IMG/VR virus record: IMGVR_UViG_3300026549_000035
Span: 32,918 to 96,917 of that record
DNA: 64,000 nt
Direction: 5' to 3' (one strand)
From: a virus
Of the stretch, positions 2,571 through 41,847 are shown in pieces. The notes under the pieces were generated by a model. It ran no database searches. It worked only from the letters and a program-made list of their open reading frames with translations, and was not told the origin of the DNA. The translations under genes and the position numbers were made by a program. Each line of letters begins with the position of its first letter. Position 1 is the first letter of the stretch.

Positions 2571-2599
2571 TTATTTTTTGAGATAAAGGAGTGAAAAAA

Positions 2600-3628
2600 A
2601 TGGATGAATTTGTAAACTTAATTGATTATTATATTTTAGAAAATTTTGAAGAAGAAGCTCCAGAAAGTTTAACTGAGCGAAAAATAGCAGTAAGTGGTCA
2701 AATTGCTAGATTAAGATAGATTTATACTTCCTTAGAAGATGAAAAATTAATTTAGAAAAAAATTTTAACAACAAGATCATTATTATATAATATATTGAAA
2801 AATGAAGGAAATAGTCTTATAACAGAAGCTTTATAGGATGCGAAAATTAGAAATCGAATTGGTAAATTAATTTTTGAAGCTTATGAACTGACTTCAATGA
2901 TTTTAGTTAATATAGGTTTAATTGATCCAATTCACTTTACTTTTACATATGCTAGTAAAAAAGGAAATGTTTTTTATCGTTCTGAAAAAATGCAAATTGA
3001 TCCTAATAAGGATTTAAAATTTGAACTACGAAATAACCAACAGACCTTGGTTATACGTTTAAAAACTTCTGTTATACGTTAGAAATTATTAGAAAATTAG
3101 TTGGGTAAAGAAGACGGCGGTATTATAGTTGCTAAACATTATAAAAAGTTTATTGAACCATTTTTAGAAAATGAAAAAAAAGGTTCTTGGAAAATGAACG
3201 TTGGTGTAGCAACAGAAGCATTCGAGCGACATTGGGAATAGTTAAAACATAGTTTAACACCTCCTAATATGAATGATGCAGATTTAGGATCTGTTGGATC
3301 ACGTTGGGTATTATATAAAATGAGTAGCGGTTCTGATCCATATTATACTGGACCAGATACTGCTGAATCTTAGGTTAAAAATGCTAATGCTAGCATTATT
3401 TCTAATGCAGATACTGTTATCAATACAATTTAGGCAGTTTTGAAATTAGCTGATACAAATCTTGACATAACAGCTATTCAACAAATTGCAGCATAGTATA
3501 AATTAGCTTTTTAGTAGAAATAGGCTTCTATAGATAATATATTAAAAGGATTAGAAAATATTGTAGATGAAGATATTTTACAAGAGGCTAAAGAAGCTAT
3601 AGCAGCAAATCCAAATTTAATAAAATAA
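2600..3628 (+). CDS. hypothetical protein (possible tail assembly chaperone), about 342 aa
   Basis: ATG at about 2600 after RBS AAAGGAGTG. Frame 2 is open to TAA at about 3628 with about 12 TAG codons and no TAA or TGA over more than 340 codons. It sits between the tail tube genes and the tape measure gene. Confidence 0.45.
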
Positions 3629-3698: not shown

Positions 3699-4145
3699 AT
3701 GGCAAATAATTATTGTATTTATATGCATAAGAATAAAATTAATAATAAAGTATATATTGGACAAAGTTGTAATATTAAAGTAAGATGGCACCCTATTTCT
3801 TATAAAGGTAGTTCATATTTTTATAACGCTATAAAAAAATATGGATGGAATAATTTTGAACATATTATTTTAGAAAATAATTTATCTTTAGAAGAAGCTG
3901 ATAAAAAAGAAAAATATTATATTAAATTATATGATTTTGTTAATAGAGATAAAGGATATAATTTAAAAAATGGTGGAAATAATGGATATCAACTATCTAA
4001 AGAAACTATTCAAAAAATTAAAAATAGTAATAAAATTTATGCAGAAATGCATAAAGAAGATTATATCCAAAGATTAGAAAAAGCTCATACTAAAGCTAGA
4101 AAAAAGGTAATATGTTTAAATAATAATAAAATTTTTGATAGTTAG
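3699..4145 (+). CDS. GIY-YIG homing endonuclease (free-standing)
   Basis: ORF track: YIYMHKNKINNKVYIGQS…RWH…YNAIKKYGWNNF…GYNLKNGG. It contains no TAG codon and lies between two tail-module genes. Confidence 0.85.
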   Translation: MANNYCIYMHKNKINNKVYIGQSCNIKVRWHPISYKGSSYFYNAIKKYGWNNFEHIILENNLSLEEADKKEKYYIKLYDFVNRDKGYNLKNGGNNGYQLSKETIQKIKNSNKIYAEMHKEDYIQRLEKAHTKARKKVICLNNNKIFDS

Positions 4146-4290
4146 CTTATAGCTGCAAATTATGCAGGTTTAAAAAATAGTGCTCCTATTAGTAGATGTT
4201 GTAAAGGTGAAAGAAAAACAGCGGGAAAAGATCCTATAACAGGAGAAAGATTAAAATGGAATTTTTATGAATTAAAGGAGGAAAACAATT

Positions 4291-4815
4291 ATGAGTAAAG
4301 TATCATTTACAAAACTTGGTTTAACTAAAAATACACAAGTTGGAAAATTTAACTGGAATGGATAGGAAATTGAGGTAAAAGCATATCTTCCTATTCAAGA
4401 AAAATTAGAATTGATTAGTAGTGTTATTAATCAGTGTCAAGATGAAAACAATTTTATTAATGACGCAAAAATGGCTATGTATTTAGATTTAGAAACTGCA
4501 TATCATTATACAAACATTAACTTTACAGATAAATTAAAATCTGATCCAGCTAAATTATATGATTTATTAGCAGGAAGTGGATTTTTACAAGATATGTATG
4601 CGGTTTTGCCATAGACAGAGTCGAGAGGTCTAGCTATTTGGTTAGATAAGACCGCAAATCATATTTATGATTATCGAAATAGCGCTTACGGCATTTTAGA
4701 CGCTTTAAAAACCGACTATGAAAATTTAGATTTTGACGCGGAAACATTAAGACAAAAAATTGCAGATCCACAAACGTTAGATATATTAAAAGGTGTATTA
4801 ACCAATTTTGGTTAA
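4291..4815 (+). CDS. hypothetical protein (possible tail assembly chaperone), 174 aa
   Basis: RBS AGGAGG precedes ATG 4291. Frame 1 is open to TAA at 4813-4815 with 2 internal TAGs. The gene sits immediately upstream of the tape measure gene. Confidence 0.45.
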
Positions 4816-4857
4816 TACAATATGTTAAATCTTCTAATTGTAATAGAAGTAATCTTA

Positions 4858-4900
4858 GGGATAGGAAAAAAGATTATTTTCCTATCCCTTTATTTTTTTA
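4858..4900 (+). terminator. rho-independent terminator
   Basis: GGGATAGGAAAAAAGATTATTTTCCTATCCC hairpin followed by TTTATTTTTTT. Confidence 0.7.
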
Positions 4901-4926
4901 ATAGAGAGAGAAAGGAGTAATAATAA

Positions 4927-7900
4927 ATGGCTAAACAACTATATGTTAATTTAGATGTTAGAGCAAATACCTAGCAAGCAAAGAATGAATTTTAGAGTTT
5001 ATAGAAATCTTTATCTGATATTATTGTATAGACAAATAAAATAAGCAATACATCAATTGATTCTACTTCTTTAAGACAAGCTTCTTCTGCAGCTTAGGAA
5101 TTGTAGCGTCATTTATCAAATGCTGTTAATATTGATACTGGAAAGTTGGATTTAAATAAATTAAATACTAGTTTAAAATAGTCTAAAACTAATATTGGAG
5201 AACTTTCTGGAAAGTTATTATCTGTAGGTTCATCTGGAGAATAGGCTTTTGTGAAGTTGGCTCAATCAGTGGCATCTGCAGAAAGACCAATAGTTTCTTT
5301 AGGATCAAGAGTAAATGGTTTATTAACAACTTTAAAAAATACTGCTCGTTGGTAGATTTCTTCTAGCATTTTGCATGGATTCATGGGAGCCATTTAGAGT
5401 GCTTATGGATATGCATAGGATTTAAATAGATCTTTAAATAATATTAGAATCGTTACTGGGTAGAATGCTGATTAGATGAATGAATTTGCTGTCTCTGCGA
5501 ATAAAGCAGCAAAAGCATTAAATACATCTACTTTAAATTATACAGATGCATCTTTAATTTATTATCAATAGGGTATCAAAGATTAGAAAGAAATTGAAGA
5601 TAGAACTGCTACTACCATTAAATTAGCAAACGTTTCTCGTTAGAGTGCTGAAGAAGTATCTAGTTAGATGACTGCGATTTGGAATAACTTTGAAGATGGA
5701 AGTCATTCTTTAGAGTATTATGCGGACGTAATTACTAAATTAGGTGCAACTACTGCTTCAAGTTCTTCTGAAATTTCTGAAGGTATTTCTAAATTTGCTT
5801 CAGTTGCTGATACTGTTGGATTAAGTTATGATAAGGCGGCAGCTTCTGTGGCTACCGTTGTAGCTGAAACTAGACAAAGCGCAGATACTGTTGGTACAGC
5901 TTTTAAAACAATGTTTGCTCGTGTAGAAGGTCTTAAGCTTGGCGAGACTTTAGAGGATGGAGTAGATTTAAATAAATATTCTACAGCATTAAAAACAGTA
6001 GGAGTAAACATTCTTGATTCTAATAAAGAATTAAAGGGAATGGATACTATTTTAGATGAATTGGGTAAGAAATGGAATAGTATAAGTGAAACTCAACAAA
6101 TAGCTTTAGCTCAAACTGTGGCGGGTGTTAGACAATATACTCAATTCATGTCATTAATGAATAATTATGATAAGGTTTTATAGAATGAAAAAATGGCTGA
6201 AGGATCTTCTGGAACTCTTCAAGAATAGGCTGATACTTATGCTGAAAGTTGGGAAGCAGCATAGAAAAGAGTTAAAGCTACAGCTCAAGGTCTTTATGAT
6301 GATTTATTAGATGATAAATTTTTTATTGGTTTAAATAATGTTTTTGCGGATTTATTAACTGGATTAAGTAACTTTATTAAAGGAATAGGCGGACTTAAAG
6401 GTGTCTTAATGGGCGTTGGTTCATTAGTTTTAAATTATATTTCTGATAAAATTTAGCCAGCTTTATCAAATTTAAAAAATACTGCAATAACAATGTTTTA
6501 GAGTCCTGCTAAACAAGCTCAAGTTTATAAAGACTTAATGGACAAAATTATTAGTTAGGCTAAGAATATTTCAAAAGACAGTATGACAGATTCTTTAAAA
6601 ACTAAATTATAGTATACTGATTAGTTATCAACAGCAAAAAATCGTTTAATGTCTGTTGATAAACAATTAACCGAAGCTGAAAAATAGCAAGCTTAGTAGC
6701 AATTAAACATTATTGATATGTATTATTAGGAAACTCAAGCTATTGCTAATAAATTAACTAAAGAAAAAGAAGAGATTGAAGTTGCTGTATCTTCTTTGTC
6801 TACAAATCAAGCTGTTATAGCTATAGAAGAATCTAGAAAAGATGAATTAGCAGGTTTAATTGAACTTTAGAATCAAGCTAGAGAGGGATATGAAAAAGCT
6901 TCTGGTTTTGCTGAGATTATTGAAGCTGCTGAAGCTTATAGAAAAGCTGCTGCTGAAGTTGAAAAATTTAAAACTGAAACTGATTTATTAGCATCTACAG
7001 AAGAAGATCTTGTTATTGAATTAAGAAATGGTTATGATATAATAATGTAGCAATCTAAAGGGTTAGCTGAAGGTGATGGAATAGTTATCAATTTAGGATA
7101 GCATTTAGGAACAACGGCAGAAGGATTTAAAGTATTAGCAGATAAAGCTCGTCAAGCTATGAATGGAACATCTTCAATAACAAAAGGAGAATTAATAAAA
7201 GAGTTTCGTAATCTTCAAGTTATTTTAGATTAGCTTGGTTTATCAAAAATTCCTCAAGTTGAAGACAAATTGTCAAAACTACTCTCTAAAGGAAAGAGAA
7301 CAAATTTAAAAGATTTAGAATCTGGATTTAAAGAATTATTTAATATATTAACTAATTTAAAAATTCCTGTAAGCAAAGATGCAGAATAGATTGAATGGTT
7401 ACGAAAGTTATTAATAGAAACTTTTAAAGATGGTAAAAATATTGAATATTTAAATGGATTATATAATAAAGCTGGAAAAAGTGCTGAAAATTTAGCAAAT
7501 TCTTAGAATCATTTAAATACTGCTCTTGCCTCTTTTAATCCTTAGCATATGATGTCTGGAGTAGAAGTTTTTTCAAAAATTAGTGCAGCTGGAATGCAAG
7601 CAGCGATGGTTATAAATAGTGTTAAATCAATTATTTCAGCTTGGCAGGATGAAGATATGGATCCACTTGAAAAATTTACTACTACATTAATGGGTATTAG
7701 TATGATTGTTCCAGGTGTAATTAGTTCTATTTAGGGAATTTCAACTGTAATGACTGCTTTAACTGCTGCTCATTCGCTTTTAAATATTTAGACTTAGTTA
7801 GGAATAGGTTTAAATGGAGAAAAAATTGCAGTAGATAGTGCGGAAACAGCAGAGACGATATCTAAAACAGCCGCAAATACAGGATTATTAAGTTCTGAAC

Positions 7901-10900
7901 AAGCTTTATTTGCTTAGGAAATGATGATTCAAGCAATAAAAATAAAAGGATCTGCTCTTAATGCTAAAGAAGTAGCTACCATTATTGCTAAAGCAGGTGC
8001 TACAAACATTAATACAGCTGCTTTAGGAGGAGAAGCAATTGCTACAGAAGCGGCAACTGCTGCTCAGTGGAGTTTAAATGCAGCTATGGATGCAAATCCA
8101 ATTGGGTTAATTATAGTTGCTATTATGGCATTAATTGCTGCTTTAGCTCTATTGGTAGTAGGTATTGCGGCTGTTGTTAATGCTAAATCGGAAGAAGAAA
8201 AAGCTTTAGAAAAAGCCAATAAAGAATTAGAAAAAGCTCAAGAAGAAGCTAAAGCAGCTAAAGAAGCTTATGAAAATTTATATAGTAAAGTTTCTGATTA
8301 TAAAACTGCGTATGAGGCTTTATAGAAATGCACTAAAGGAACTAAAGAATGGAAAGAAGCTTTTGAAGAAGTTTCAAATAAAGCTAATGAATTAATAGAA
8401 GCTTATCCAGATTTATTAAAATATGAAAATCTTTTTGATGCAAATGGATTAATTAATTCTAAAGCTCTAGATAAAGCTTTAAAAGAATATGAAGATAGAG
8501 TTTCTGCTACAAAAATTACTACAATTTAGAAACAAGCTAATGTAACATCTGCTCAATATGAAGTAAATAAATCAAATTTATCTGATAAAATAAAAATTAA
8601 TGATGTTAATGAACAATCTGCAAATAATATAGCTAAAGCTATAACTAGTAGTTTAAATTATCATCCAGTCGAAGCAGGAAAAGCTTTAGTTTCTAGTATT
8701 GAATCTGCGCAATTGGATGAAAAAATTTCAAATGGAGTTACTTCAGCTTTATTAGCTAACAAGGATAAAATAAATAATTATTTTGATTCAGAGTCTGTCA
8801 GTGAAGTTATTAAAAATTATTTAGAAAAAAATGCTGAAGAATATTCTTTAGATAATTCAAGAATAGACGAATTGACAAATGAATTTACTAAAAAAACAAT
8901 TTCTTTAGGAAATGACTTCGCTGATTTATCAGCTGAAACTAAAAAGACTATTACTGCGATGACAAATGCTTCTAAAATGATAGCACAAGAATTCTTTGGT
9001 GAAGAATTAAATATGTCTAATCCAGAAAAAATTCTTTCTTATAATGAGGCTTTATAGAATTATTAGATTGAGACAGAAGAAAAAATAATAAATGCAATGA
9101 ATAACGCTACCGTTGAGGCAACTGAAAAAATGGTGCAAAGTCGTGGTGCGGCTGGTATGACAACTGGAGGAATAATTTCAGAAGATTCTTATTTAAATGA
9201 AATTGGTCAAACTTATATTAATAACAATACAGATGAAGAAAAAAAGAATTGGAAATTTAAAAATGTTAGAAATGATTATTGGAATGGTACTTTAGAATAT
9301 GTATATGTAGATGAAAAAGGAGCAGAATAGGAAATAAGTGCTGATCTAGTAAAAGATTTTATGGTATAGTATGAAGCTCAAAGAGATAGAGATAAAATTA
9401 TAGCAGAAGGAGAAACGAATTCAAAAAATCAATAGTCAGATTCAGAAAAAGCTATATCCTAGTATTTAGTAAATTCAAATCTTAATGGAGCAACTATTAA
9501 ATAGGCTACAGTTTTATCCAAAATTTCAGATCCATTAGAAGCTTATTTTGGAGAAGATTATACTGATGATGATATTAAAGAAAAACTTGCTGTCGCGTGG
9601 GGAAAAGATGTTTCTGAAATTTCAGATGATGAATTTGAAACTTGGAAAAGTGGAATTGCAAGCAATTTAAAAGAAGTATAGGACATGATCGCAGAAACTC
9701 CTAATTTTATTAAAAAAGCTATGGGAGATGACTTAATTAATTCTTTAAGTGTAGAAGCTTTTCCAAAAGTTACTGAAATGTTTTCTTAGGCTTATGTTTA
9801 GAATGGTCAAGCTGGTGTAGATATGTTAAAGAGCATTGTTGATTCTGCGGGAGATGAATCTAGTTAGGTTATGGCTGCTTTATCAGATATGGACTTTGGC
9901 ACAATGAATATTGACGATGCTAATACTGCATTAAAAAATTTAGGAATCTAGTTTTAGTTAAGTGAAATATAGTTTTATAGTTTAAAAAATACTTTATAGG
10001 ATATTAGTACTGTTACCGCTGAAACAGCTAAAGAAACTTATAAGACTGTTTCTTCAATTCTTTCTAAGCTAAAAGCAGAAGGAGATATTATTGAAGATGA
10101 GGATTATTAGAAATTATTAGCTTTGAATCCTGCGATAGAGTCTTTTTTCATTACTTTAGCAGATGGAACTCATATGTTAACTGGAGAAGTAAAAGATTTT
10201 AAAACTGCTATGCAATCAGCTTCACTTAATCAATTACAATAGGTTTAGGAAAATTCTCAAAAGACAGCTTTAGCTTATGGAAAACTTTCTTCAAGTGGTT
10301 CAGTATCAGGATCTTTAAATAATATTAATGATTTTGAAAATAGTTCTTAGGCTGAAATATTAAATGCTCAAATTCAAGTTATGCGTGATTAGGGAGAAGT
10401 CGATCGTGCTAATAATTATGAAGTTCAATTAAAAGATGCTTTAGATACTGGAAATCTTGAAAAATTAAATCAAATTTTAGAAAATGGTAATTAGTCTTGG
10501 ATAGATTATGGCGTTTCAACTGAAGAGGCGACAAAAAAAATTGAAGAAGCTGAAAAAGAAGCTGGAGAGTTAACAGAAGCTATAAAAGAATAGTAGTATC
10601 AAAACGAAATTTCTAATGCTGGATTGGAATATGAAGCAACTGAAAATTATGCTGATGTATTAATGGAGCTTTATGAAGCAGAAGGTTTAAGTAAAGACGC
10701 GGCAAGAGAGTTAGCTATAGCTAATCAAAGAGTTGATAGAGGTTTAACTTCTTTAAATGATAATTTAGATGATTGGAAAACTAGTTTAGAAAAAACAAAT
10801 AAAGCTAGTGCTGAATATGCTGAAACTATTTCTGGATTAAGAGAATCTTTTTCTGATTTATTAAATATTGCAGATGGAAGTGAGTTATCTCTTAGTTGGA

Positions 10901-13900
10901 TTGAGAAGTGGGCTAAGAGCGCCGATATGACAAAAATCCTTGATGGAGATACAGAAGCCTTAGAAAGATTTAGAAAATCAGCTTTTACAGAAATGACTAC
11001 AAACGTATTTTCAGACATGAAAGATTCAGTTGAAGCTTTAATAGAAGATTTAGATTAGGTTAAAGATGCAGCTTATTTATCTGATTTATAGAATCTTTCA
11101 AATGTTTTAAATGATGGAACTTTTTCTGCTGAAAATTTACGAAATGCAATCTAGGATTTAGGAAATCAAGAGATTGGATCCGGCGCAACTTTAAGTGATG
11201 AGTATGTAGAATCTTTAAATAGTATGTTAGCTGCAGGTTTAATGACAGAGCAACAATTAAATGATATTTTTGCTACTATTGGATATAAACCAAAAGTTCG
11301 AACTGCGTCTGTTGATCAATGGGTTGAAATACCTATTTATAAAACAACCGAAGAAATTACTGAAGACACTTCTTCTGGTCTTATGAGTAATCTTTTTGGT
11401 GGAACTCGAAAATCTACTCGTACTGTTGTTTCAAAAACAGTGTAGACTGGTACAGAAAGAATGTTGCAAAAAGTGCCTGTCACTTAGATAGAATCTGCTG
11501 ATACAGCAGGAGGAAATATTGAAATTGTTAATGCAGGAAGTAATAACATTACTCCTTCTTATAGTTCTACTACAACGGGCTCAGGCAGTAACAGTGATTC
11601 TTCATCAAACTCTTCTTCAACACCTACTACTAAAGTAGCTTCTCATACTCATGAAATAAATCGTTATACAGCAGAAGAAAATGCTATTGATGGACTTTCA
11701 AAACAATATGAGAAACTTAATAATATTAAAGACAAGTCTTTTGGAAAAGGTAAAATTCAAGCTATTGAAAATGAAATTAAAGCTTTAAAAGAACTTAAAT
11801 AGGCTTCTACCAACTATATGGATGCTATCGTTGGTGATGGTAATGGTAAAAGAATTGCTGAAGCTATATATCGTGGTGAAAATATTGGCGATCTATTAAG
11901 AAATGGCGCAATTAGTGGTAATTTAGGTTCTGATTATAGAGCTTTAAGCTATGGCATTAGTGCTTCTGGAAAATAGGTTGAATATACTGCTAAAGATGAA
12001 GCAGGAAATGAATGGTTGGCTTCTCGAGATTATAATATAAATGATTTTAATGCCATGTTTGGAACTAACATTCATTTTGATTTAGACGCTTTTGGCAATA
12101 TACAAAATGCAGATTCTATTAGAAATTAGCTTCAATAGTTAAAAAATAATGAATCTGATGCTTATTCTAGTATTGCAGATCCAACTGCAAGCTCTACAAC
12201 TAGATATAATGAACGTATGGCTTATATTGATGAAATATTAGACCGTATGGACACTTTTGGAGATTCTATTAATACTCTAAGTGAACAATCTGAAGAATAT
12301 CTTGACTATATTACTTAGCTTCAAGAGAAAAATGCTGAATTAATTACTTCTAAAATGGAACTTGGAGTTGAATTAGGAGATAAGAGTTTACGAAGAATCG
12401 ATCGTGCTTTAAAAGTTTTAGGAAATGATATATATAGAAGTACTGAAGCTATGAAAAAAGCTTTTGAATTAAATGATCAAAAAATAGAGTCTTCTTAGGA
12501 AAAAGCTTAGTCTTATCAAGAGATGATGAACGAAGCTGAAAGAAGATTTGCTTTATATCAAAAAAATCCTTTAAATGAAGATGCTATTACTCCTGCCGAA
12601 TATGCTGAAATGCTTTCTACTGCTGAAGAAGGATTTGAGTCTATTGCAGATGAAATGCGAGAATATATGAATTATTTTTATGATATGTATTCTGGAATGC
12701 AAGATTATTGGGAAGAAAAAATATCTCGTATTACTAAACAAATGGAAGATAGTATTAAAGTTTTAGAATATTATCAAAAAGTTTTAGAGCTTACAGGGCG
12801 TTCTGGAGATTATGAATTAATTGGAAAAATTTTAGAGGGACAAGCAGAAACAGCTAAGACTATATTTGAAACTTCTCAAGCTCGAGCTGAATTAGCCAAG
12901 AAAGAATGGGAAAGACAAAAAGATGATCTTGAAAAAGCAAAATTAGATCCAACTCTTTCTAAAGATTTATTAGATACATTAGAAAATATGACTGAATTAG
13001 CTTATGAAAAATATGTTGAAGCAGTTGAAACTGCAAGAGAAGATTCCTTAAATTATTTAGAAATAACTCAAACTGCTTTTGAAAATAAAATTAAACAAAT
13101 GCGAGTTGAATCAGAAAAATTCTTGACTAACGGAAGTGATTTTGATAGTTTAAATAAATCTATGGAAAGACAAAAGAGTCTGTCTGAGGATTATTTAACT
13201 AAAACTAATTAGCTTTATGAAACTAATAAGATGTTACGTCAATTAAATCAAGATATTGATAAAACAGACAGTGTTATAGCTAAAAATAAATTAAAAGCAT
13301 TTGCAGATGAAATTTCAGCCATGCAAGACCAAGAGAAATTAAGTAATACTTCTTTAGAGATTGCTAAAGCGAAATATGAAATTTTATAGGCTCAAATTGC
13401 TTTAGAAGATGCCTAGAATGCAAAATCCACAGTATAGTTAAGAAGAGATTCTGAAGGTAATTATGGATATGTATACACAGCTGATGAAGAAGCTGTAAAT
13501 AATGCTTAGCAAAACTTAGAAGATAAAGTAAATGCTTTATATAATTTAGGTAAAAAAGCCAGTGAAGATTTTGCTGAACGAATGATTTAGTTAGAATAGG
13601 AAGAGTGGGCAGAAATTGAAGAAATAGCTAATAATACTATTCTAACTACTGATGAAAAGAATATTAAAATTGCTGAACTATAGGAATATTATAATGCTAA
13701 AAGATAGGCTCTTTCTGAGCAATATGAAGAAGCTAATTTGGCTCTTCAGCAAGGAGCAGTCGCGCAAAGACTTTTAATCACTGATAAATTTAATACTGAA
13801 AATCTTGATATTGAAAAAGTTGCGGCTGAAGCTAGAGCAGAAGCTTGGACAGAAAGTTTTGCTACTACAATAAAAGATTAGAATACTTATGAAGCACATT

Positions 13901-14853
13901 TTAAATAGCTTGCATCACAATTAAAATCTGAGATGTAGAAATTGGATGATAAAAGAAAATAGCATGAACAAGCAACTAAAACAGGAAATAAAGAAATTAA
14001 AGAAAGTATTGATGATATTACTGATGCAGTTGATGATTTAAGTTATGAGATTTTAAAAAGAGATGGTCTTTTAGATTCATACAGTGATGCTTTAAATGCT
14101 TCTAATGCTTTAAAAGATTCTTTTAAAAGATAGTATGAAACAGCAAGAGAATTAGCTAATCAATATTCTAATGCCGCAGATAGAGCTAGTAATTTATATA
14201 CAAAAACAGTTGATTTAATTAATGCTTAGGTTGCTCTTAACCATGCAAATAATGGAGCTACTTATGTAGAGTGGGGTCCTGGAGGAGTTACAGCAGATTA
14301 TAATGGTAATACTGTTTCTAATGGTGGAAATGGAAATAACTCTAGTAATAAAATTTCTGTTGATAATAAATCTCAGTTTAAAAAAGTAGACCCAAGTAAA
14401 GTAATTTTATGGCAAGATGAATATTATCATTTTAAAAATGGAGATATTTCAAAGATTAATAATAGAGGCGCTAAATATGGATGGGAATGGGATGAGCTTG
14501 GTTATAAATATAAAACAGGTGGTTATACAGGCTCTTGGAATGGACCAGATGTAGAAGAAAATGGAAAGTTAGCTTTCTTACATCAAAAAGAATTAGTATT
14601 AAATGCAGATGATACTGAAAATATGTTAAATGCAGTAAAATTAATCCGTTAGATTAGTGAATCTATTGATTTACAAGCTGCAGTTTAGAGTTCTTATTCC
14701 GTTGGAGCAATTTAGTTCCCTGGAAATAATCAAGTTTTATAGCAAGAAGTTACTATTCATGCAGAATTTCCAAATGCAACTGATCATAATGAAATTGAAG
14801 AAGCATTTAACTCTCTTGTTAATAGAGCTTCTCAATATGCAAATCGTAGTTAA
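4927..14853 (+). CDS. tail tape measure protein, about 3,308 aa, with dozens of TAG sense codons
   Basis: RBS AAAGGAG then ATG 4927. Frame 1 is continuous to TAA 14851-14853, and every in-frame stop is TAG. Hallmark tape-measure blocks are present (LGATTASSSSEISEGISKFASVADTVGLS…TAFKTMFARVEG), with long coiled-coil regions. The C-terminal region is the conserved Gram-positive siphophage block (…KTGGYTGSWNGPDVEENGKLAFLHQKELVLNADDTENM…). Confidence 0.9.
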
Positions 14854-14856
14854 TAA

Positions 14857-14892
14857 AAAAAGAGGAAAAGAATAATCTTTTCCTCTTTTTTC
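14857..14892 (+). terminator. rho-independent terminator
   Basis: AAAAAAAGAGGAAAAGAATAATCTTTTCCTCTTTTTTCTTTT. Confidence 0.7.
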
Positions 14893-14981: not shown

Positions 14982-17900
14982 ATGTCATAGAATAAAATCG
15001 ATTATCCAGAACAAATTTATAAAGCAATAGATATTATAACTAATAAACGATTAGAAGCTCTTTAGTATGATATTACTATTGAAGCAACTATTACTGATGA
15101 TGCATAGGCTGAAAAAGGTGTTTATACTGTATCTAATGGAAATGCTAGCTTTTTAGCTTATAGTAAAGATTCTGAATATAAAAATAATGATGTAGTTATG
15201 GTAACTATTCCACAAGGTAATTACAATAATCAAAAAATTATTGTAGGAAAAAAAATAAATGAAGAAAAAGAAGAAACACCTATTGAATTTAAAAGACCTT
15301 TTTCTAATTTAATTAATATTACAAATAATATTTTAAGTAATGAGAATTAGAAAAAGGAATATAGTTTTATTGCTAATGGAGAAGAATATTGTTGGGATAT
15401 AACTGCTTCGGATATTTTATAGTCTTCTTATAGTCAAAATGATTATATTTCAATAGATTTATCTGAGATTGGTTATACTCGAGTTGGTGTAAAAGCAGAT
15501 TTTTTAACAACTTTAAAAGAATATCAAGTTGTTTCTGGTAATTATGGACTAGAATTTATTTTAACTTTTTCTAATGATCCTCTTTCAGAGGAAAAAATTA
15601 TTAAAACTTTTTCATTAGATAGTAGTAATTTTTTTGGTAATATATATAATTTAGATATTTATCAAAATTAGGAACTTGTTTTTGATATATCTGATATGGA
15701 AAACTATATTTTAAAAAAGATATAGATTTGTCCATATCAACGGAAAAATTTTAAAAATATAAATAATGAAGATATTTCAAATAAAGTTCCTTTTGATAAT
15801 ATTTTTATTAAAAATATTTATATTTGTTTAGGAACATCTGCAATAGATTTTGATAAAGATTCTGTAAAAATTACTACAAAAAATAGCCTTCTTTATAGTA
15901 AGAATAATGAAAAAAATAATGTAAAGATATTAAATCTTTAGTGGATTCATAAAAATGAAGATAGTAATATAATAAAAGTTGTTCAAGAAGATGAAATTCC
16001 CACTAAATATCATATATGGTGGTATATATATGATAGAGAAAGCTCTGATTTGTATGCGGGAGCAGGATGGAAACGTTTTTATGGATGTAAAACTATTATG
16101 AATCCAAAAACAGGAGATTATTTACTTAAAAAAGAAGAAATTAAAAATGAAGAATTAAATTTAAGATATCCAGAAGATGTAACAGATCATTTAGAAGACA
16201 TCTATTTTTTCCCTAATGGAAATGAACAAACTCAATAGTTAAAAGTTATTATTGTAAAAGAAAAAAATAATATTAATGAAGAAAATGCTTTTACAGATAA
16301 TTCAGATATTTATTTTTATGATAAAATTGTAGAATCAACAATTTTTAAAATTGAAAATGAAAATGAAGTCGCTAATAAACAAAGTATTATAGATGCAAAT
16401 GCATTATCTATTAAAATTGATGATAATTCATACGGAAATTATTGTTTATATAATCGGGCTGGGAATATTTTATTAGGTGAAAATACTAAATTAAGAACTT
16501 TAACGGCAGTTTTTGATCCATATGAAAATGAAGTTTATAATAAACCAATTTTAAGTTAGCCTTATAGTTTTATAAAATGGATAATTCCTGCTTCTAATAC
16601 GATGATAATCCCAATTGTAGAAATTGTCGATGAAACAGAAATTGTTGTTTTATAGTAGCCTTCTAATTATGATATTGAAACTTTTCAAAATAACCATCAA
16701 GGAGTTAATGAATATCCCTTATATGATGAATTGACAGCAGGGAAAGGATATAAAATTATTTATAATATAAGTTAGAAAACTTTTGAATATATTGCAGAAG
16801 ATATTGTTTCTAATCAAATTCCTTTAGTTAAAATTGGTTATTATATTAAAGATTTTTTAAATTATAGTAATAATCGAAACACTATTTCTTTAGAAATATT
16901 AAAAGAAGGTTCATCTTATAACGCTTTAATTAATCTGTCTTTTAGTAATTCTGGAGTTTCTGGTTCAGATTATGATATAAAAGTAGATTGGAGCGATAAT
17001 GCTTTTGATATTAATAAAGGAGTTCTTTCAGGTCGAGTCATTTTAATGAAGGATTAGAATGAAATAGATATTGGTTCAGGAGAATATGAATATAGCTGGT
17101 ATAAAGTAAACGCATTAGATAAAACCTCTAAACAATAGATAAAATTTGATTCTAAAATTGAAACAAATAAAGAATTATATTATCCAGTGACTGATGGAGG
17201 CTCAGATGGAAAACTTAGGACCCATTGCGATTGCATGTATATATATATAAATTCTAAATTTAAATATTATGGTGATAATGGAACTGGTAAACCAAAATAT
17301 TGGTTAAGTGGATATAATAAAGAGTATAATACTGATCAATTAGCTTGGTATGACGTGACAAATAAAGAATTTAAAGAGATAACTTCAATTTCAGATTCTA
17401 ATCCAGCGACATTAAATAAACATCAAGAAAAAATTATTTATAGTAAAACTTCAGAAGATAAAAGAAAAATAATATTTAAACCTTTTGATTTTGTATCTAC
17501 AGATAAGTATAATAATAAAGAAGGTGTAGCTGTTTTTAATAATAAGTCAACCTATTATTATAGCAGTACTCGTAGAGCTTTTGTTAAATGCGATGGTAGA
17601 TATATAATTGATCCATGGAATAAATATAGAGAAGATATCTAGTATTATTATCCTGATTATGCAGATGAAAAAATATATGATTATAATACATATAACATTT
17701 TAAAAATTATAAATGATAATTCTTAGCCCAATTCTTTTATAATTACAGATGATGAAAATCATACTAGAAAACCAAATATGCAAGATTTATATATATTACA
17801 AATTACATTAAATAATTTTATTGATTATCCTTTAACGGCTTATTTTCCAATTGCTTTAAAAAATAGTGATATAAATAAAAATTTTATTGTATCTGGATTT

Positions 17901-35089: not shown

Positions 35090-35602
35090 TTAATGTTCTT
35101 TTTTTTCATTTTCTCTTATTTCCTTCATATTTAAAATTCTTTGATTGCGGCTTCCGCGCATAGCGAGGGTAATATCTCTTTCAGATAGTAAAAAAGGTCC
35201 TTCAATTAAATAATCTATGTTGTCAAAAACCATATCTATTTTAGGTTCTATCTTCTCAATTAATTCCTATAATTGCTCATAGGTATAGCCTGTCCAAACA
35301 TAAATTTTTATATTAGGATAAACCTTTCTTACTTCTGTGATAATCATCGCTGTTAAAAAAACATTTTCTCCACAAAGAGGTTCTCCACCCATAATACTTA
35401 AATTTCTTTGAACCCCATTGGCATGTAAAGCTTCGATAATTTCCTATAAAACTTCTGGAGTGAATTCTTTTCCGCCATTAAAATCCCAAGTCTAAGGATT
35501 CTGACAACCAGGGCAATGAATAGGACAGCCCTAGGTGAAGAAGCTAACATTAACTCCTTCACCTGCAGCAATATCATTTTTTATAATACCGGCATATCTC
35601 AT
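35090..35602 (-). CDS. nrdG: anaerobic ribonucleotide reductase activating protein (radical SAM), about 170 aa
   Basis: MRYAGIIKNDIAAGEGVNVSFFT[Q]GCPIHCPGCQNP… carries the CxxxCxxC radical-SAM motif of NrdG with 4 TAG codons. The start ATG overlaps the TGA of nrdD exon 4 (ATGA). Confidence 0.8.
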
Positions 35603-35688
35603 TCCATTACCCCCACGTGTTTAGCTCTATTATGGACTTCGTCTTGTTTTCCGAGATTAAATGCTTCGGTGTAATTACCAGTTAAATA
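35599..35688 (-). CDS. nrdD: NrdD exon 4 (C-terminal about 29 aa after the glycyl-radical Gly)
   Basis: YLTGNYTEAFNLGKQDEVHNRAKHVGVME then TGA. It joins exon 3's …EQLRRVTG to give the RVTGYL glycyl-radical motif. Confidence 0.7.
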   Translation of the reverse strand, partial: YLTGNYTEAFNLGKQDEVHNRAKHVGVME

Positions 35689-36925
35689 CAATTTTGTTAT
35701 CCTACAGGCTTTTTATCCTATAGTTCTTATAGTTTCCTATAAGTTCGGCGTACATTTTCATCTACGACTTTACGTTTAGATGTTGGACACTCTTGGAAGG
35801 ATTATATTTATTCACCTTCTACGCTCTACGGTACTTCTTTGCCTTTCGCAATCAAAGAAGTTACCTCGGTATTAGCATAAATTAAATTATATTTTCTTTT
35901 AAGATAATGATTATTATGATTTTTATATAAATAATTTCGTAATAAAACTATATCTTTTTGACTAGACCATCTAATTCTTTTTATAGAACCTTCTTTAGTA
36001 ATATTATTTTTATTTAAAGAAGGTAAAGCTTTAAAAAGATTTTTCTAAACCCAAGATATAATATTTTCATTTCCACAAAAACTTATTTCACAACATTTTT
36101 GACCAGAAGATCGAATATATGTTGTAAAACCTCCATCTCCATCAAAAAGACCTCTTAAAAAAGATGAATTGTATTTAGAATTAAAAATTGGAACTTGCAC
36201 AGAAAAAGTTTTCTTTTGAGTAATTCCCATTTTTTCTAAATCTAAAATTATTTTTTTACACCCTAAGCTAAATCGTTTATAATTTTTATTACTTGTATAT
36301 ACTTTATTAACAACTCCTAAATCTTGTTCTAATAAGTGTAAGATATCTTCATCTTCTTGTTTTAACGTTAATTCTAACTAAAACTTGCTTTTTTCTGGCT
36401 AATTAGTAATTGAACCATCACTAATAATCCATCCGAGCCAATAAGCTTTTTCTGGAGAGTCAATATTTTCAAAATAATTTTCATTTAAATCAGGGTTTTT
36501 TCTTTTTGAAGAAGAAATATTTTCACAATCTTTCACAATTTTTTTTATTCTTTCATAACTAATACTATATTCTTTCTACAATTTTATTAAAGGCTCATAA
36601 TTCATATAACGTTTTTTAATTTCTTCTTCCTATTCTTTTGTTAAAACATTTTTAATTTTAGCACCTATTCTTCTAGGGAGATTATTTATTCTCGCGATTC
36701 GACTAATTGTTGATGTGCTAATATTAAACTATTTTGCTATATCTTGAGTTGATATTTCTGGATGATTTAAATATAAATCAATAATTTTTTTGTCTCTATC
36801 CGTCATAATATAAAAAACTCCTTTACTGGTTTTTCTATTAAGACTTGAAAATTTAATCAGTAGCTTTCACCGATTTTGCCCAATAATATTTTAAAAAATT
36901 TCTTTTTTAAACGGCTATTTAATTA
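35689..36925 (-). mobile_element. self-splicing intron (type 'A/B') in nrdD at the glycyl-radical motif, carrying a LAGLIDADG homing endonuclease gene
   Basis: The 5' exon ends …ACAGGT and the intron ends …GGATAACAAAATTG. The roughly 190-nt 3' core (35689-35885) is about 85% identical to 32383-32575, with compensatory base changes in two stems. Confidence 0.7.
35808..36806 (-). CDS. LAGLIDADG homing endonuclease with N-terminal HTH, about 332 aa
   Basis: …AYWLGWIISDGSIT… and …LRGLFDGDGGF… are the two LAGLIDADG motifs, with an N-terminal sigma-70 region-4-like HTH. Roughly 7 TAG codons are present, and the C-terminal about 25 codons overlap the conserved intron core. Confidence 0.75.
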
Positions 36926-37453
36926 ACCTGTTACTCTACGAAGTTGTTCTATATGAGTTCCACCGCAGCGAGGACAAGTATCATTAATTTCACCTTCCCA
37001 ATCGCAATCTAAACATTTATCAGAAGGAACATTTATTGCAAAATAAGGAATATCTTTGTCCATAGCATAGTTAACTATTTGTTCTAAGGCTTTTGTATTA
37101 TGAACGGCAGACGCATCTAATTCTACATAAGTGATACAACCTGCAGAAGAGTATGGAGTTAATTGACTTTCAATGTCAATCTTATCAAATGGGCTAATAG
37201 AATACCAAACTGGAACATGGATACTATTAGTAAAGAACTCTTTATCAGAAACATTTTTAATAATTCCATATTTTTCTCTAAATTTTTTCAATGCTGTATA
37301 ACATAGATTTTCTGCTGGGGTATAATAAACTCCGAAGTTAAGAGAATATTGCTCTTTGAATTCAGCGCAACGCTTTTTAAATAACTCTTCAATTCTTTTA
37401 GCAACTTCCATACCTTTTTTTGTGGTATGATCGCAACCAACTAAGATCTAAAG
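36926..37453 (-). CDS. nrdD: NrdD exon 3
   Basis: …(ILV)GCDHTTKKGMEVAKRIEEL…CLDCDWEGEINDTCPRCGGTHIEQLRRVTG. This is the C-terminal Zn-ribbon of class III ribonucleotide reductase. The 5' boundary is approximate. Confidence 0.65.
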
Positions 37454-38686
37454 AGTCTCTGCGAGACCTAACTGCATTTTTTATACCCTTCTTTTCAGAA
37501 TATTTAAAGGGATTAGACTATACCATAAATTGATTTATAAATTTCTTGATTGTCTAATTTATTTTTTCTTATTGGTAGTTTAAATTGATTAGTAATTTCT
37601 TTCCATGTAACTCCTCTAGAAATATCTCCTACAGTATTTTTTCCTATGTTATAAGAATTAGCAATTTCCTATAAAGTATTACTAGTAAATATAAGCTAAT
37701 AACAAATATTTTGGACTTCTAATTCAGATAATTTATTCTAATAAACATTCTTTTTTATATTTTTTCTAATAGGATAATTTAAATCCTTAGGACACCAGCT
37801 GTTTTTTCCCCTGTTTATTTCCCCAACAGTATAATTACTTATACCTAAAGTTAAACCGATATCTACAATAGATAAATTTAAATCATTTTTTAACATATCT
37901 ATAATCTTTTTAACTAAATCATTATTTAATTTAGTATGATTTGGGGTTTTTCTTATTGGATAATCTAAATTAGCTTCATAAAAACTTCGCCCTCTATTAA
38001 TATCACTAATACAAGTGAGACTTACTCCAAAATCATTTGCAATTGTTTGAAATGTTATATTACTATTTTTTAACAAGTCTTTAATTTCCATTTCAGCAGA
38101 ACCGCATATTAATTGTTTAGAGGTGCTTCGTTTTCCTCCTTTAGTCATATTATATCCTTTTCCAGAAGTATAATATGCATCAGTTATTTTTATTTGATAA
38201 ATTTCTCTTTCATCTAATTTTTCTAATGGAATAAAATCTTCTACAACCTCTATTGAAAAATTATCAATTCCATATTTTTTTAAAGCTCGATGAAAATACA
38301 ATTCATCATTTTTGGTATCCTATAAATGTTTATTAATTCTATCTTGTAATCTACAGGTAGTCTAACCAATATAAATTTTTCCATTAATTTTATTAGTAAA
38401 TTTATAAATTAAACCAGTTCTCATAAAAATAATTGCTCCTTTTTTACTTTTTCATATTATTATGAAAACTGGGACAATCGCATTTTTCAATTTTGTCCAT
38501 TATAGTCGTTGAACGTTCCTCTGTTCTAGAGGCTTCGCTGCGTCTGGTTGCCCAATCCTTAACGATTTTACCATATCTTGGTCGCTAACCTTGCCACTTA
38601 TATATTCCTATATAAGCTTGGTTGTTAAGGCTCTAAGGGTGTTCCCGCAATTTAGGACATTTATAGTGGGCCAGTGTTAGGCTTTA
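37454..38686 (-). mobile_element. group I intron (distinct subtype) in nrdD carrying a GIY-YIG homing endonuclease gene
   Basis: Exon 2 ends …ALKHGTLAVG (…CAGTGGGT), complementary to an internal guide-like GGCCCACTA. A roughly 260-nt 5' core with hairpins (GTGGGTTAAAGCCTAACACTGGCCCAC…) precedes the ORF. After the ORF comes a roughly 60-nt 3' tail …GTCTCGCAGAGACTCTTTAG. Confidence 0.6.
37513..38424 (-). CDS. GIY-YIG homing endonuclease, about 303 aa
   Basis: MRTGLIYKFTNKINGKIYIG[TAG]TTCRLQDRINKHL[TAG]DTKNDELYFHRALKKYGIDNF…GYNMTKGG, followed by two repeated HTH modules (…IANDFGVSLTCISDINRG…, …LTLGISNYTVGEINRGK…). Confidence 0.8.
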
Positions 38687-39023
38687 ACCCACTGCCAAAG
38701 TTCCATGTTTAAGAGCAGAACGTATACCCTCTTCTGGAATGTAACCTGCCATAGTATGATTTTCATACATAAATTTAGCAGAATTTGGATTTTGAGAACA
38801 AATCCATTCAAAACGTTCAAGTAAAGAATCTTTTGCATCAAAAATAGCTTGATCCAAAATCTTTAAAAATACTTCTACAATATCATCATCATATTCACTG
38901 TCAAAAACTTCTTTTGCTTCCATTGCTAAAGTAGGAAGGATAATTGTAACAGGACAAATATTTCCTCTACCATCTTTTAACTGACCAAAACCATTAATAT
39001 CCCAACCATTTGCAGTTCTACAC
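38687..39023 (-). CDS. nrdD: NrdD exon 2
   Basis: CRTANGWDINGFGQLKDGRGNICPVTIILPTLAMEAKE…ALKHGTLAVG. Joined to exon 1 it restores the conserved MGCR motif (…STMG|CRT…). Confidence 0.65.
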
Positions 39024-39830
39024 ATGTTTACCTAATGTTGCCATTAGCACTGACTATATCTTCTATCTTTTTATTAAGATAGCCTTCCGCTTCGAATATG
39101 TGCCTATCTCATATTCTACTCCCTTACATTCATCAGGGATAGTCGATACAGGTTTTTAATCTTTATCATATTTCCAAATATATCCATAAGCTGTTTTTTG
39201 TTTATTATTTAAACAATAATTAATTCCAACATTTTTAGATTCATTTCCTAAAAATCTAGCTGCTTCTCTTGCTGTTTGGAATCTTTTTAATAATTGTCCA
39301 TTTTTATTATACATTAAAACATCAGCAACATATTTAGAATTTTTATTACCTTTTCCTTTTTCTGAAATAATTTCTTTAATATAATCAGAATGTTTATGAT
39401 ATTCAATACCGCCTAGATCAGCATTATATCCATTTGGTAGTAAAGAATTATACTTTTGAATATATTCACGTTCTATTTTTGATATTTCATTATCTTTTAT
39501 ATTTGTTAAAAGTATTTCAAAAGAAAAATTTTCAATTCCATTTGCCTATATTGCTTTTCCTATAAATGATTTAGAACTTGGTTTTTTATGTTCTGCGAAT
39601 CGTTCATATGGATTTCTATTTGTAATACCTATATAATTTTTATTATTTAATAAATTTGTAATTTTATATAAACTATACATTTTATCACCTTCTCTTTTTA
39701 AGATGATAAAGATTAAACTTCCCACGGTCTCATCCGCATGGGACCTAACCGTTAGCGCAGTCACATTATTTGCGGCCGCACACCCTCAGGCGAGGTTCAA
39801 AAGGTTTTAGATGAGCTATAGTTTCCACTT
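39024..39830 (-). mobile_element. group I intron (IA2-like 'GCTAACGG' family) in nrdD carrying a GIY-YIG homing endonuclease gene
   Basis: The 5' exon ends …ATGGGT. The intron carries …GCGCTAACGGTTAGGTCCCATGCGGATGAGACCGTGGGAAG… (compare T4 td …AACGGGGAACC…AATCCCGTG…). After the ORF come CCTGTATCGACTATCCC…ATAGTCAGTGC then a hairpin, ending G. Confidence 0.65.
39157..39680 (-). CDS. GIY-YIG homing endonuclease, about 174 aa
   Basis: MYSLYKITNLLNNKNYIGITNRNPYERFAEHKK…NGYNADLGG…KTAYGYIWKYDKD. The start is anchored by track ORF 39546..39764. The 3' end coordinate is approximate. Confidence 0.75.
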
Positions 39831-41096
39831 ACCCATCGTTGAGAAATAAGTTCTTGGGTCATTTCGATCATATCCAGCATTACCAGACCAATCAACATTA
39901 GCATAATTTGGATATAATCTCTTAGCAGTAGATTGTAAAGCTAATTGATATAAATCGTAATTGGGGTCTCCCGGTTTACGATTAACTCCCTTCATACATT
40001 GGAAAATTCCACAAGGGAAAATTGAAGTTCTATAATGTTTTCCTAATCCTTCAATAGACACATCTAATAAAGCTTTAATTACCATTCGACCTTCTGAACT
40101 AGTGCAAGTTCCATAATTAATAGAAGTAAATGGAAGTTGATTTCCACTTCTGGACTGTAGAGTATTTAAATTATGATACATACCTTCTGCAGCTTGGTGG
40201 GCTTCTCTTTTAGTCATTTTAATCGCAAAATTATATACTCGCTCATTATATGCTTTCCATTCTGGATCATCAATGCTATAATCTTTCGCATTTTTTGCCA
40301 TATTGACAATTTCATAATCGGCTTGAGACCAATTTTTATCTTCAAGGAATTCCCAACCATCTATATAGTGCTTTACAAAACTTTTACGCACATATGGAAC
40401 CATTGTCCAATCTAAATGAGTTGCAGAAACTCCACCAAACTATTGTAAGCTTTGTAACTAGAAAATAACCGCAACCAATTGGAAAGCAGTTTCTAATGCT
40501 CCAGCAGTTCGAACATCCGTTTGACGAGTGTTAAATCCTTCTGCTAACAAATCATCAAAAGGAATACTTAAACAGTTATGAGATCCAACATAATAACTAC
40601 CTAAATCATGGATATAGTTTCTATTATTAATATGATTGTAACAAGCTTTATCAGATATAATAAAATCTAAAGCTAATTTTTTAGCTACAACATCCATTGC
40701 TTCGCCAGTTCTTCCTCCAAAAGAGTTCTCATCTACATTAGCATTTTGCTTTTGAATGTTTTTTGCATCTAGCTTTTCTCTAATAGCATCAATAAAATCA
40801 TGTTGATAATTACGAGCTACCTCTTTTTTATAACGATATCGAATATATGCACGAGCCACATCAAGACGCTCAGAGCGCATTAAATATTCTTCTACTAAAT
40901 CTTGAATTTTTTCAATTGTGCAGAGGTCATTATCTTGAGATTTAAAATAATCTTCAATTTCATCTGCAATATCTTTAGCAGTATCTTCTTCATAGAGTTT
41001 TCCATCTACTTCAAGAAAAGCAGCATTAATGGCATCTATAATTTTTTGTTTATCAAATGTAACAAGAGTTTTATCTCTTTTTTCTACATTAATCAT
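39831..41096 (-). CDS. nrdD: NrdD exon 1 (ATP-cone + N-terminal catalytic region), about 422 aa
   Basis: RBS AAGGAGTG then MINVEKRDKTLVTFDKQKIIDAINAAF… is an ATP-cone. …NRNYIHDLGSYYVGSHNCLSIPFDDLL…LQSRSGNQLPFTSINYGT…YFSTMG follows. Track ORFs 40458..41096 and 39816..40403 are in frame and joined via TAGs. Confidence 0.75.
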
Positions 41097-41436: not shown

Positions 41437-41847
41437 TAATTCATATGGAGATATATAAAACATTTCTGGTTTATAGTCTGCATATAAAACAGTTCTTTTC
41501 TAATAATAAATTTTTATATCAAGATTGTTATTTAAACAATACCAATGATATTTTACATTTTTAAATTCTGGTAAAAAACGATATTCTTGTCCAGGCTTAA
41601 TAATTATATTTTTTAATATCATTTTTTCTAAAGGAATTTCTATATAAGCACCATAATCACCAATAACAACACGAGAATATCCTTTAGCTAAAAAATGACC
41701 ATATTTATCATATATTTTACAATTAAGATTTCCGTTCAAAGAGAAACAAGACGGAAGTTCTTTTTCGTATTGTCTTCTTTGTTTTATAGATAATTCTTTC
41801 GGTAAAGGTTTATAATGATATTGATCTACTAATTGTTGAATTGTCAT
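41437..41847 (-). CDS. hypothetical protein, about 136 aa
   Basis: Track ORF 41500..41847 extends through TAG. The start overlaps the dnaE stop (TAATG). Confidence 0.4.

Follow-up and report, generated by a model that had tools for sequence, protein, structure and literature searches.

A single open reading frame (ORF) at positions 4927 to 14853 of a 64,000-nucleotide (nt) stretch of virus DNA (IMG/VR record IMGVR_UViG_3300026549_000035, positions 32,918 to 96,917; here, the window) very likely encodes the tail length tape measure protein (TMP) of a large gut phage that uses genetic code 15 and whose structural and replication modules are similar to those of Bacillus phage SPbeta. The frame and its ribosome-binding site are as follows:

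4927-14853, + strand: TMP ORF, 3,308 sense codons and a TAA stop; 96 TAG codons lie in frame and are read as glutamine (Gln)
4912-4917, + strand: Shine-Dalgarno sequence AAGGAG, 9 nt before the ATG of the TMP gene, read from the sequence

The frame is 9,927 nt long (divisible by 3), opens with an ATG that immediately follows an in-frame TAA, and ends with a TAA. As the original prediction required, no in-frame TAA or TGA splits it into several genes (0 TAA or TGA, 96 TAG). Because the other two frames of the same segment contain 174 and 433 TAA or TGA codons, we exclude that the frame is open by chance; at the lower of these two off-frame stop rates, a stop-free run of 3,308 codons has a probability of ~e^-179. 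When the standard code is applied, the longest stop-free piece of the gene is 233 codons and the median piece is 18 codons. A standard-code gene caller would therefore shred the gene, in keeping with the prediction that the ORF is invisible to such callers, and the homologous gene is fragmented in GenBank record OQ749652. The N terminus of the predicted protein, MAKQL..., is common to most of its homologs.

The protein belongs to the PF10145/TP901-type TMP family, with the canonical core located near the N terminus, where it had been predicted:

5500-6126, + strand: PhageMin_Tail (PF10145) core, residues 192 to 400, detected with Pfam within a conserved N-terminal region (residues 1 to 520)

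The Pfam match covers positions 1 to 201 of the 201-position profile and scored 83.1 bits relative to a cutoff of 33.2 (E = 3.3e-23), and the top PHROG families are all annotated "tail length tape measure protein" (2e-52 and 3e-48). Across residues 1 to 520, the protein is 36 to 86% identical to 346 metagenomic TMPs, and PF10145 was present in the 346. These Pfam and PHROG matches bear out the prediction of a single TAG-recoded TMP ORF.

The entire 64-kb window is TAG recoded. In-frame TAG codons were observed in 48 of its 54 ORFs, on both strands, for a total of 289, with only TAA and TGA serving as stops; the G+C content of the window is 28.7%. The TMP gene had been described as the most TAG-dense gene, which holds by count, since it contains 96 of the 289 TAG codons (a third of all), but not by density, since its value of 2.90% of codons ranks fifth among the 54 ORFs (top value, 3.51%), behind three small ORFs and the ORF at 2591-3628. 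TAG accounts for 51% of the Gln codons of the TMP gene, with CAG nearly unused (96 TAG, 90 CAA, and 4 CAG). Across the structural block, TAG makes up 1.99% of codons and 45% of Gln codons, whereas it makes up 1.12% and 29%, respectively, in the remaining genes. This late-gene enrichment is modest because the replication genes are recoded as well. Within the TMP gene, TAG was front-loaded in 4927-5676, where it accounts for 17 of the 22 Gln codons among the first 250 codons (77%) versus 47% of those further downstream in the gene (Fisher's exact test, P = 0.011; a post hoc comparison, uncorrected).

To assign an amino acid to TAG, residues 1 to 520 of the TMP were aligned to 119 metagenomic homologs. 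This region has 21 TAG positions, at which Gln represented 1,182 of ~2,500 aligned homolog residues and lysine, the next most frequent residue, 219, relative to a Gln background of 6.6%. The TAG codons at residues 143 (in RWQ), 215 (in YYQQG), and 434 fell within columns where every one of the 119 homologs has Gln. Since some of these homologs (e.g., P0001) had themselves been translated with Gln at TAG, we checked the standard-code relative L001, in which TAG terminates 4 of 16 genes and is internal to none. In L001, each of the three invariant columns is a CAA codon, and 16 of the 36 TAG positions that align well correspond to Gln. The assignment of TAG to Gln, and hence genetic code 15, is well supported by these alignments. 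Given that the first TAG of the TMP gene is codon 16, translation would halt after 15 residues without TAG decoding. By analogy with the gut phage phAss-1 and other recoded phages, the decoder is likely a phage-encoded tRNA-Sup(CUA) elsewhere in the genome.

At its other end, the protein carries the conserved Gram-positive C-terminal block that had been predicted:

14479-14850, + strand: C-terminal block, residues ~3185 to 3308 (TGGYTGSWNG...GKLAFLHQKELVLNADDTENM...FPNATDHNEIEEAFNSLVNRASQYANRS), defined by tblastn and by invariant columns in a 37-sequence alignment

This block is common to the TMPs of Enterococcus phages, Bacillus Tsamsa-like phages, and SPbeta-like phages. A tblastn search with the block matched 59 phage records, all from Firmicutes phages and mostly in genes annotated as TMP or yomI, and the TMP of Enterococcus phage VRE9_3 is matched at its very C terminus. 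A homolog search with the C-terminal 1,069 residues returned one weak match, probably because helical low-complexity words swamped the word index, and an IMG/VR scan with the C-terminal module returned nothing.

An exhaustive HMMER search with residues 2240 to 3308 against 1.84 billion representative proteins returned 2,499 matches, 885 of them at an E value of 1e-30 or better. Among the best 150 of these 2,499 matches, 127 are single chains that have the C-terminal module as well as the N-terminal core. These 127 full-length TMPs range from 2,517 to 3,594 residues (median, 2,973), and 9 of them are at least 3,308 residues long. TMPs from individual phages compare as follows:

Window phage: 3,308 residues
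Recoded relative from a metagenome-assembled genome (MAG) bin labeled Acutalibacteraceae: 3,217 residues, 72 TAG codons
phAss-1, the closest GenBank phage (136 kb; NCBI "Caudoviricetes code 15 clade"): 3,150 residues, 110 TAG codons, measured here
Enterococcus phages of the EF1/VRE9 type: 2,673 residues

The length of the TMP had been considered exceptional, a view that these data do not sustain. It is ordinary for its lineage, and TMPs of this kind have already been described in phAss-1 and two relatives (3,149, 3,150, and 3,209 residues; PMC10607447). The TMP of Thermus phage P74-26 is longer still, at ~5,006 residues, and the tail of this phage, at nearly 1 micrometer, is described as the longest of any known virus. 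The bin label of the recoded relative provides a weak hint of a clostridial host.

The predicted tail is nevertheless long relative to those of siphoviruses in general, which mostly measure 50 to 200 nm. Bacillus phage Tsamsa has a TMP of 3,123 residues and a measured tail of 440 nm (PMC3903500), and Thermus phage P23-45 has a TMP of 5,002 residues and an 800-nm tail, which correspond to 0.141 and 0.16 nm per residue, respectively. With this calibration, 3,308 residues would specify a tail of ~466 to 530 nm, an estimate that assumes that the whole chain acts as a ruler, with about a quarter of the modeled part not being helical. The original figures of 0.15 nm per residue and ~0.5 micrometer are thus reasonable, as is the claim that the tail would be far longer than typical siphovirus tails. 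No usable electron microscopy of Enterocloster phage PMBT10 turned up in a literature search.

The remaining parts of the protein were delineated by hydropathy, by residue conservation, and by AlphaFold models built with family alignments (mean predicted local distance difference test [pLDDT] score of 66):

8080-8193, + strand: hydrophobic segment, residues 1052 to 1089 (AAMDANPIGLIIVAIMALIAALALLVVGIAAVVNAKSE), with a maximum of 3.2 in a Kyte-Doolittle 19-residue window
11284-11631, + strand: small beta-rich element followed by a Gly/Ser/Thr-rich linker, residues ~2120 to 2235, from AlphaFold strands and composition
11914-12171, + strand: small alpha/beta domain, residues ~2330 to 2415, from AlphaFold; the best-predicted part of the C-terminal third (pLDDT of ~90)
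13144-13506, + strand: most conserved internal block of the C-terminal module, residues ~2740 to 2860, from invariant columns in the 37-sequence alignment A1

The segment at residues 1052 to 1089 is the only strongly hydrophobic segment of the TMP and a candidate membrane-inserting stretch; similar stretches are found at the same place in homologs. The beta-rich element corresponds to strands at local residues 1031 to 1111 of the model of residues 1090 to 2239, and a conserved beta hairpin (RRDSEGNYGYVYTAD) at residues 2838 to 2852 corresponds to strands at local residues 596 to 612 of the model of residues 2240 to 3308. The latter model is 72% helix, with helices of up to 78 residues, and residues 1090 to 2239 form mostly shorter helices. 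The long coiled-coil stretches that had been predicted are therefore consistent with a largely alpha-helical protein, although we only infer that the helices pack as a coiled coil.

Internal tandem repeats had also been suggested, but none were detected in the protein by self-BLASTP or in the DNA by Tandem Repeats Finder, so the length of the TMP does not derive from recent duplication. No lysin or other enzyme domain was detected in Pfam at E values up to 0.1. When the models were compared to the Protein Data Bank (PDB) with Foldseek, residues 2240 to 3308 matched only SMC-/MukB-type coiled coils (best E value of 0.017, not significant), and residues 1090 to 2239 matched nothing below an E value of 0.4. 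These Foldseek results therefore do not point to a fused enzyme, be it a lysin of the YomI type or an RNA polymerase like that of P23-45. The alpha/beta domain at residues ~2330 to 2415 had no significant structural match, and a PDB sequence search with the last 231 residues gave no match.

The genes and putative signals that flank the TMP gene are as follows:

57-881, + strand: shorter tube paralog (phrog_2729)
969-2570, + strand: tail tube protein, YomU_Tube-like, 533 residues (phrog_2729)
3699-4298, + strand: free-standing GIY-YIG homing endonuclease, between tail genes and just 5' of the TMP gene
4291-4815, + strand: YomO-like protein of 174 residues, directly 5' of the TMP gene (phrog_30570)
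4857-4889, + strand: terminator-like hairpin from a consensus scan, 13-bp stem followed by a T-run, in the 111-nt spacer 5' of the TMP gene
14856-14891, + strand: terminator-like hairpin from a consensus scan, 16-bp stem followed by a T-run, beginning 3 nt past the TMP stop codon
14982-19862, + strand: tail fiber protein of 1,626 residues, directly 3' of the TMP gene (PF13884 at 4.5e-9; PHROG tail fiber families)

The TMP gene lies between tube and chaperone-like genes on one side and a fiber gene on the other (in order, tube paralogs, GIY-YIG, YomO-like, TMP, and fiber). The two tube paralogs matched phrog_2729 at 9e-55 and 1e-26. In L003, a relative that is 86 to 95% identical to the window at the nucleotide level, the tube gene ortholog is 86% identical and has a precomputed Pfam match to PF27173 (YomU_Tube), and the ortholog of 4291-4815 has a weak precomputed match to PF27287 (YomO). 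The product of 4291-4815 occupies the position of a tail assembly chaperone and, from its position only, may serve this function. The fiber protein ends in a Peptidase_S74 intramolecular chaperone, and more tail genes are located downstream. In three more distant relatives, the 10 kb upstream of the TMP gene encodes YonD, YonB, YomW, YomV, and YomU_Tube but no sheath family. The window is 100% identical to part of contig k141_7166 of ENA ERZ27252065 (177,555 bp), which also carries the SPbeta families YorF and YorH. Taken together, these gene families point to an SPbeta-like siphovirus module. A megablast search of window positions 1 to 25000 against GenBank phages gave no match.

Several additional features of this region were observed. 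The 533-residue tube paralog has a C-terminal extension of ~230 residues that ends in an acidic tail, and the same pair of paralogs is found in L003; the GIY-YIG ORF at 3699-4298 is absent from that site in L003. The putative terminator hairpins bracket the TMP gene, one lying 5' of its ribosome-binding site and the other 3' of its stop codon. The region contained 5 terminator-like sites relative to 3.0 ± 1.6 in shuffled sequences, a count that is not significant on its own. At 177,555 bp, the contig is larger than the 133- to 136-kb genomes of the phAss-1 group, and a related GIY-YIG-bearing contig reaches 195 kb.

Among known systems, the phAss-1 group (phAss-1 [OQ749652], BK046881, and BK025033; Babkin et al. 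2023, PMC10607447) likewise consists of TAG-to-Gln gut phages, with genomes of 133 to 136 kb and a single TMP ORF of 3,149 to 3,209 residues. The phAss-1 TMP has the same N-terminal core as the window TMP and is similarly shredded in its standard-code annotation (OQ749652). However, the TMP cores are only 32.8% identical, and no nucleotide similarity was detected, which places the window phage outside the proposed genus Phassvirus, in a relationship that, as judged from these sequences, is broader than the genus level. The two also differ in G+C content (28.7% in the window versus 37.8% in the phAss-1 stretch) and in size, with the window contig being larger (177.6 kb). Furthermore, whereas phAss-1, a siphovirus-like phage with TAG-to-Gln recoding, encodes 36 tRNA genes, including three Sup-CTA tRNAs (PMC10607447), no tRNA was seen in the 64-kb window.

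The other systems are more distant. Bacillus phage vB_BanS-Tsamsa is a giant Firmicute siphovirus whose TMP (gp226; 3,123 residues) shares the C-terminal block with the window TMP, but it uses the standard code, belongs to the Joanripponvirinae lineage, and aligns only over this block (~40% identity over 90 residues by tblastn). The YomI protein (CwlP) of SPbeta shares the TP901-type N-terminal core (24% identity) and the GKLA.LH.KELVLN motif, and neighboring SPbeta genes belong to the same families (YomU tube, YomO, YomV, YomW, YonB, YonD, YorF, and YorH). YomI is a 2,285-residue protein with muramidase and endopeptidase domains, and it is annotated "putative transglycosylase" in the matched records. 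In contrast, no lysin domain was detected in the window TMP by Pfam or by the fold search of residues 1090 to 3308, and SPbeta uses the standard code. The cultured Enterococcus phages EF1, EF5, H1, and VRE9 (~140 kb) contribute phrog_34405, the best PHROG family for the window TMP (2e-52). Their TMPs are 29% identical in the N-terminal core and 36% identical over the C-terminal 105 residues, with the same protein end point, but they are encoded in the standard code and, at 2,673 residues, are ~635 residues shorter. Thermus phages P23-45 and P74-26 likewise have giant TMPs that set extreme tail lengths, although these are larger (5,002 to 5,006 residues, with tails of 0.8 to nearly 1 micrometer), the N-terminal part is an RNA polymerase, and the host is Gram negative.

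Several observations weigh against reading 4927-14853 as the intact TMP gene of a code 15 siphovirus. ARAGORN detected no tRNA of any type in the 64-kb window or in the 9 kb past its end; none turned up in fragments of related contigs either, and Rfam gave no match in the window at gathering thresholds. The confidence of the AlphaFold models was moderate, as reflected by their mean pLDDT, and the last 170 residues were poorly modeled. The siphovirus morphology and the tail length are both predictions, the latter by cross-phage calibration, and the absence of a sheath gene rests on the relatives, with the head-proximal part of the structural module lying outside the window. Finally, the TMP frame is interrupted once or twice in four relatives, with homology continuing past each break, which leaves some room for a two-product organization in parts of the family:

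L001 (standard code), 16301-16303: one TAG, codon 2101 of 3,142
L005, ~7320-7346: frame shifts at an A9 run, at the junction that is interrupted in L001
L006, 15713-15715: one TAA, codon 1905 of 2,931
L003, 7574-7592 and 9676-9736: TMP in three frames, with one change resulting from a 151-nt deletion

The breaks in L001 and L005 fall just past the Gly/Ser-rich linker (window residue ~2240), the stop in L006 is ~170 codons downstream, and P0003 and P0118 carry inteins at the linker junction. Low-complexity DNA that is prone to error, gene decay, and programmed readthrough or slippage are all possible causes of these interruptions. L001, L003, L005, and L006 were fetched via gene calls of at most 2,100 residues, a sample that is biased toward interrupted genes. 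We considered whether the TMP is normally split in two in the relatives and rejected this possibility, since uninterrupted proteins of ~3,000 residues are the rule (127 of the best 150 matches). Because it was the unbiased search that revealed this rule, the apparent split is largely a selection effect.

These interruptions bear on whether the ORF is instead a fusion of a ~2,240-residue tape measure and a ~1,070-residue downstream protein, which are made separately or as short and long isoforms, such that the ruler would be shorter than 3,308 residues. The positions of the breaks in L001, L005, and L006 are consistent with this arrangement, as are the use of TAG as a genuine stop in 4 of 16 L001 genes, the inteins of P0003 and P0118, and the Gly/Ser-rich linker that precedes the junction. 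However, we consider a fusion improbable, given the bias of the interrupted sample and the 127 uninterrupted chains of 2,517 to 3,594 residues among the best 150 representatives. In addition, Enterococcus phage TMPs end with the C-terminal block, sequence homology is unbroken across the interruptions, and the window TMP frame itself contains no stop or shift. A related proposal, which we regard as doubtful, is that the giant TMP gene acts as a translational switch in this lineage. Given the TAG of L001, the slippery A9 run of L005, and the inteins at the junction near residue 2240, and the TAA of L006 downstream of it, some members might produce two isoforms, one short and one long, through readthrough or slippage.

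Since the window starts inside the tube genes and a sheath gene would lie upstream of it, the TMP could in principle belong to a contractile-tailed phage (myovirus) rather than a siphovirus. This is very unlikely, as the 10 kb 5' of the TMP gene in the three relatives encodes only SPbeta-type families. The SPbeta-like relatives are siphoviruses, as are the Tsamsa-like ones. The authors of the phAss-1 study hold the same view of their phages (PMC10607447). It is barely conceivable that TAG is a true stop and that the region comprises a series of short genes or a pseudogene in decay, even though no standard-code piece exceeds 233 codons and the window yielded no suppressor tRNA. Against this stand the lack of any TAA or TGA in 3,308 codons, relative to 174 to 433 in the other frames, the colinear TMP homology over the full length and across all 96 TAG codons, the TAG codons in invariant Gln columns, and the in-frame TAG codons in almost every gene of the window on both strands.

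Homing endonuclease genes and split genes were also observed elsewhere in the window. The DNA polymerase III alpha gene (41847-48206, - strand) is split into three ORFs (46779-48206, 44417-45583, and 41847-43037), between which lie a NUMOD3 endonuclease ORF (45741-46526) and a GIY-YIG endonuclease ORF (43407-44294). In relatives L010 and L012, the first two polymerase pieces form one ORF of 874 residues, and Rfam detected no group I intron at the polymerase locus at the gathering score. The anaerobic ribonucleotide reductase gene nrdD (region 35090-41096, - strand) is likewise found in three ORFs (39807-41096, 38684-39025, and 36923-37477), which are split by two GIY-YIG ORFs (39156-39764 and 37513-38424), whereas NrdD is intact in L010 (762 residues). 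A LAGLIDADG ORF (35808-36806) precedes an NrdG-like gene (35090-35602), and more GIY-YIG and LAGLIDADG ORFs are located at 62890-63738 and past the end of the window, beside gyrase and ligase genes.

Based on established TMP biology (lambda gpH, TP901-1, SPP1, and T5), several copies of the TMP that we describe would form an extended helical bundle within the growing tube. The C terminus would be anchored in the tail-tip complex while tube subunits polymerize along the bundle, and the length of the TMP would set that of the tail at ~0.14 to 0.16 nm per residue. At infection, the TMP would be ejected, and its hydrophobic segment may help form a membrane channel. As in the phAss-1 group, TAG decoding would presumably rely on a tRNA-Sup(CUA) encoded by the phage. 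With 96 TAG codons in the gene, the first of them at codon 16, production of the TMP requires TAG decoding and would be coupled to the recoded (late) state of the cell during infection. If the translational switch described above exists, full TAG recoding in the window phage would represent its end state, in which all TMP synthesis depends on the suppressor tRNA.

The matches recovered here define a large, mostly uncultured lineage of gut Firmicutes phages with TMPs of 2.5 to 3.6 thousand residues (885 representative clusters at an E value of 1e-30 or better). If the ruler rule holds, tails in this lineage would measure ~0.35 to 0.55 micrometer and be among the longest known apart from those of the Thermus phages, although these lengths are already implicit in published work, to which a single gene adds little. 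The main value of the finding lies in annotation: standard-code pipelines yield dozens of short "hypothetical proteins" from such a gene, as in the phAss-1 GenBank record, whereas recognizing code 15 recovers the central tail gene.

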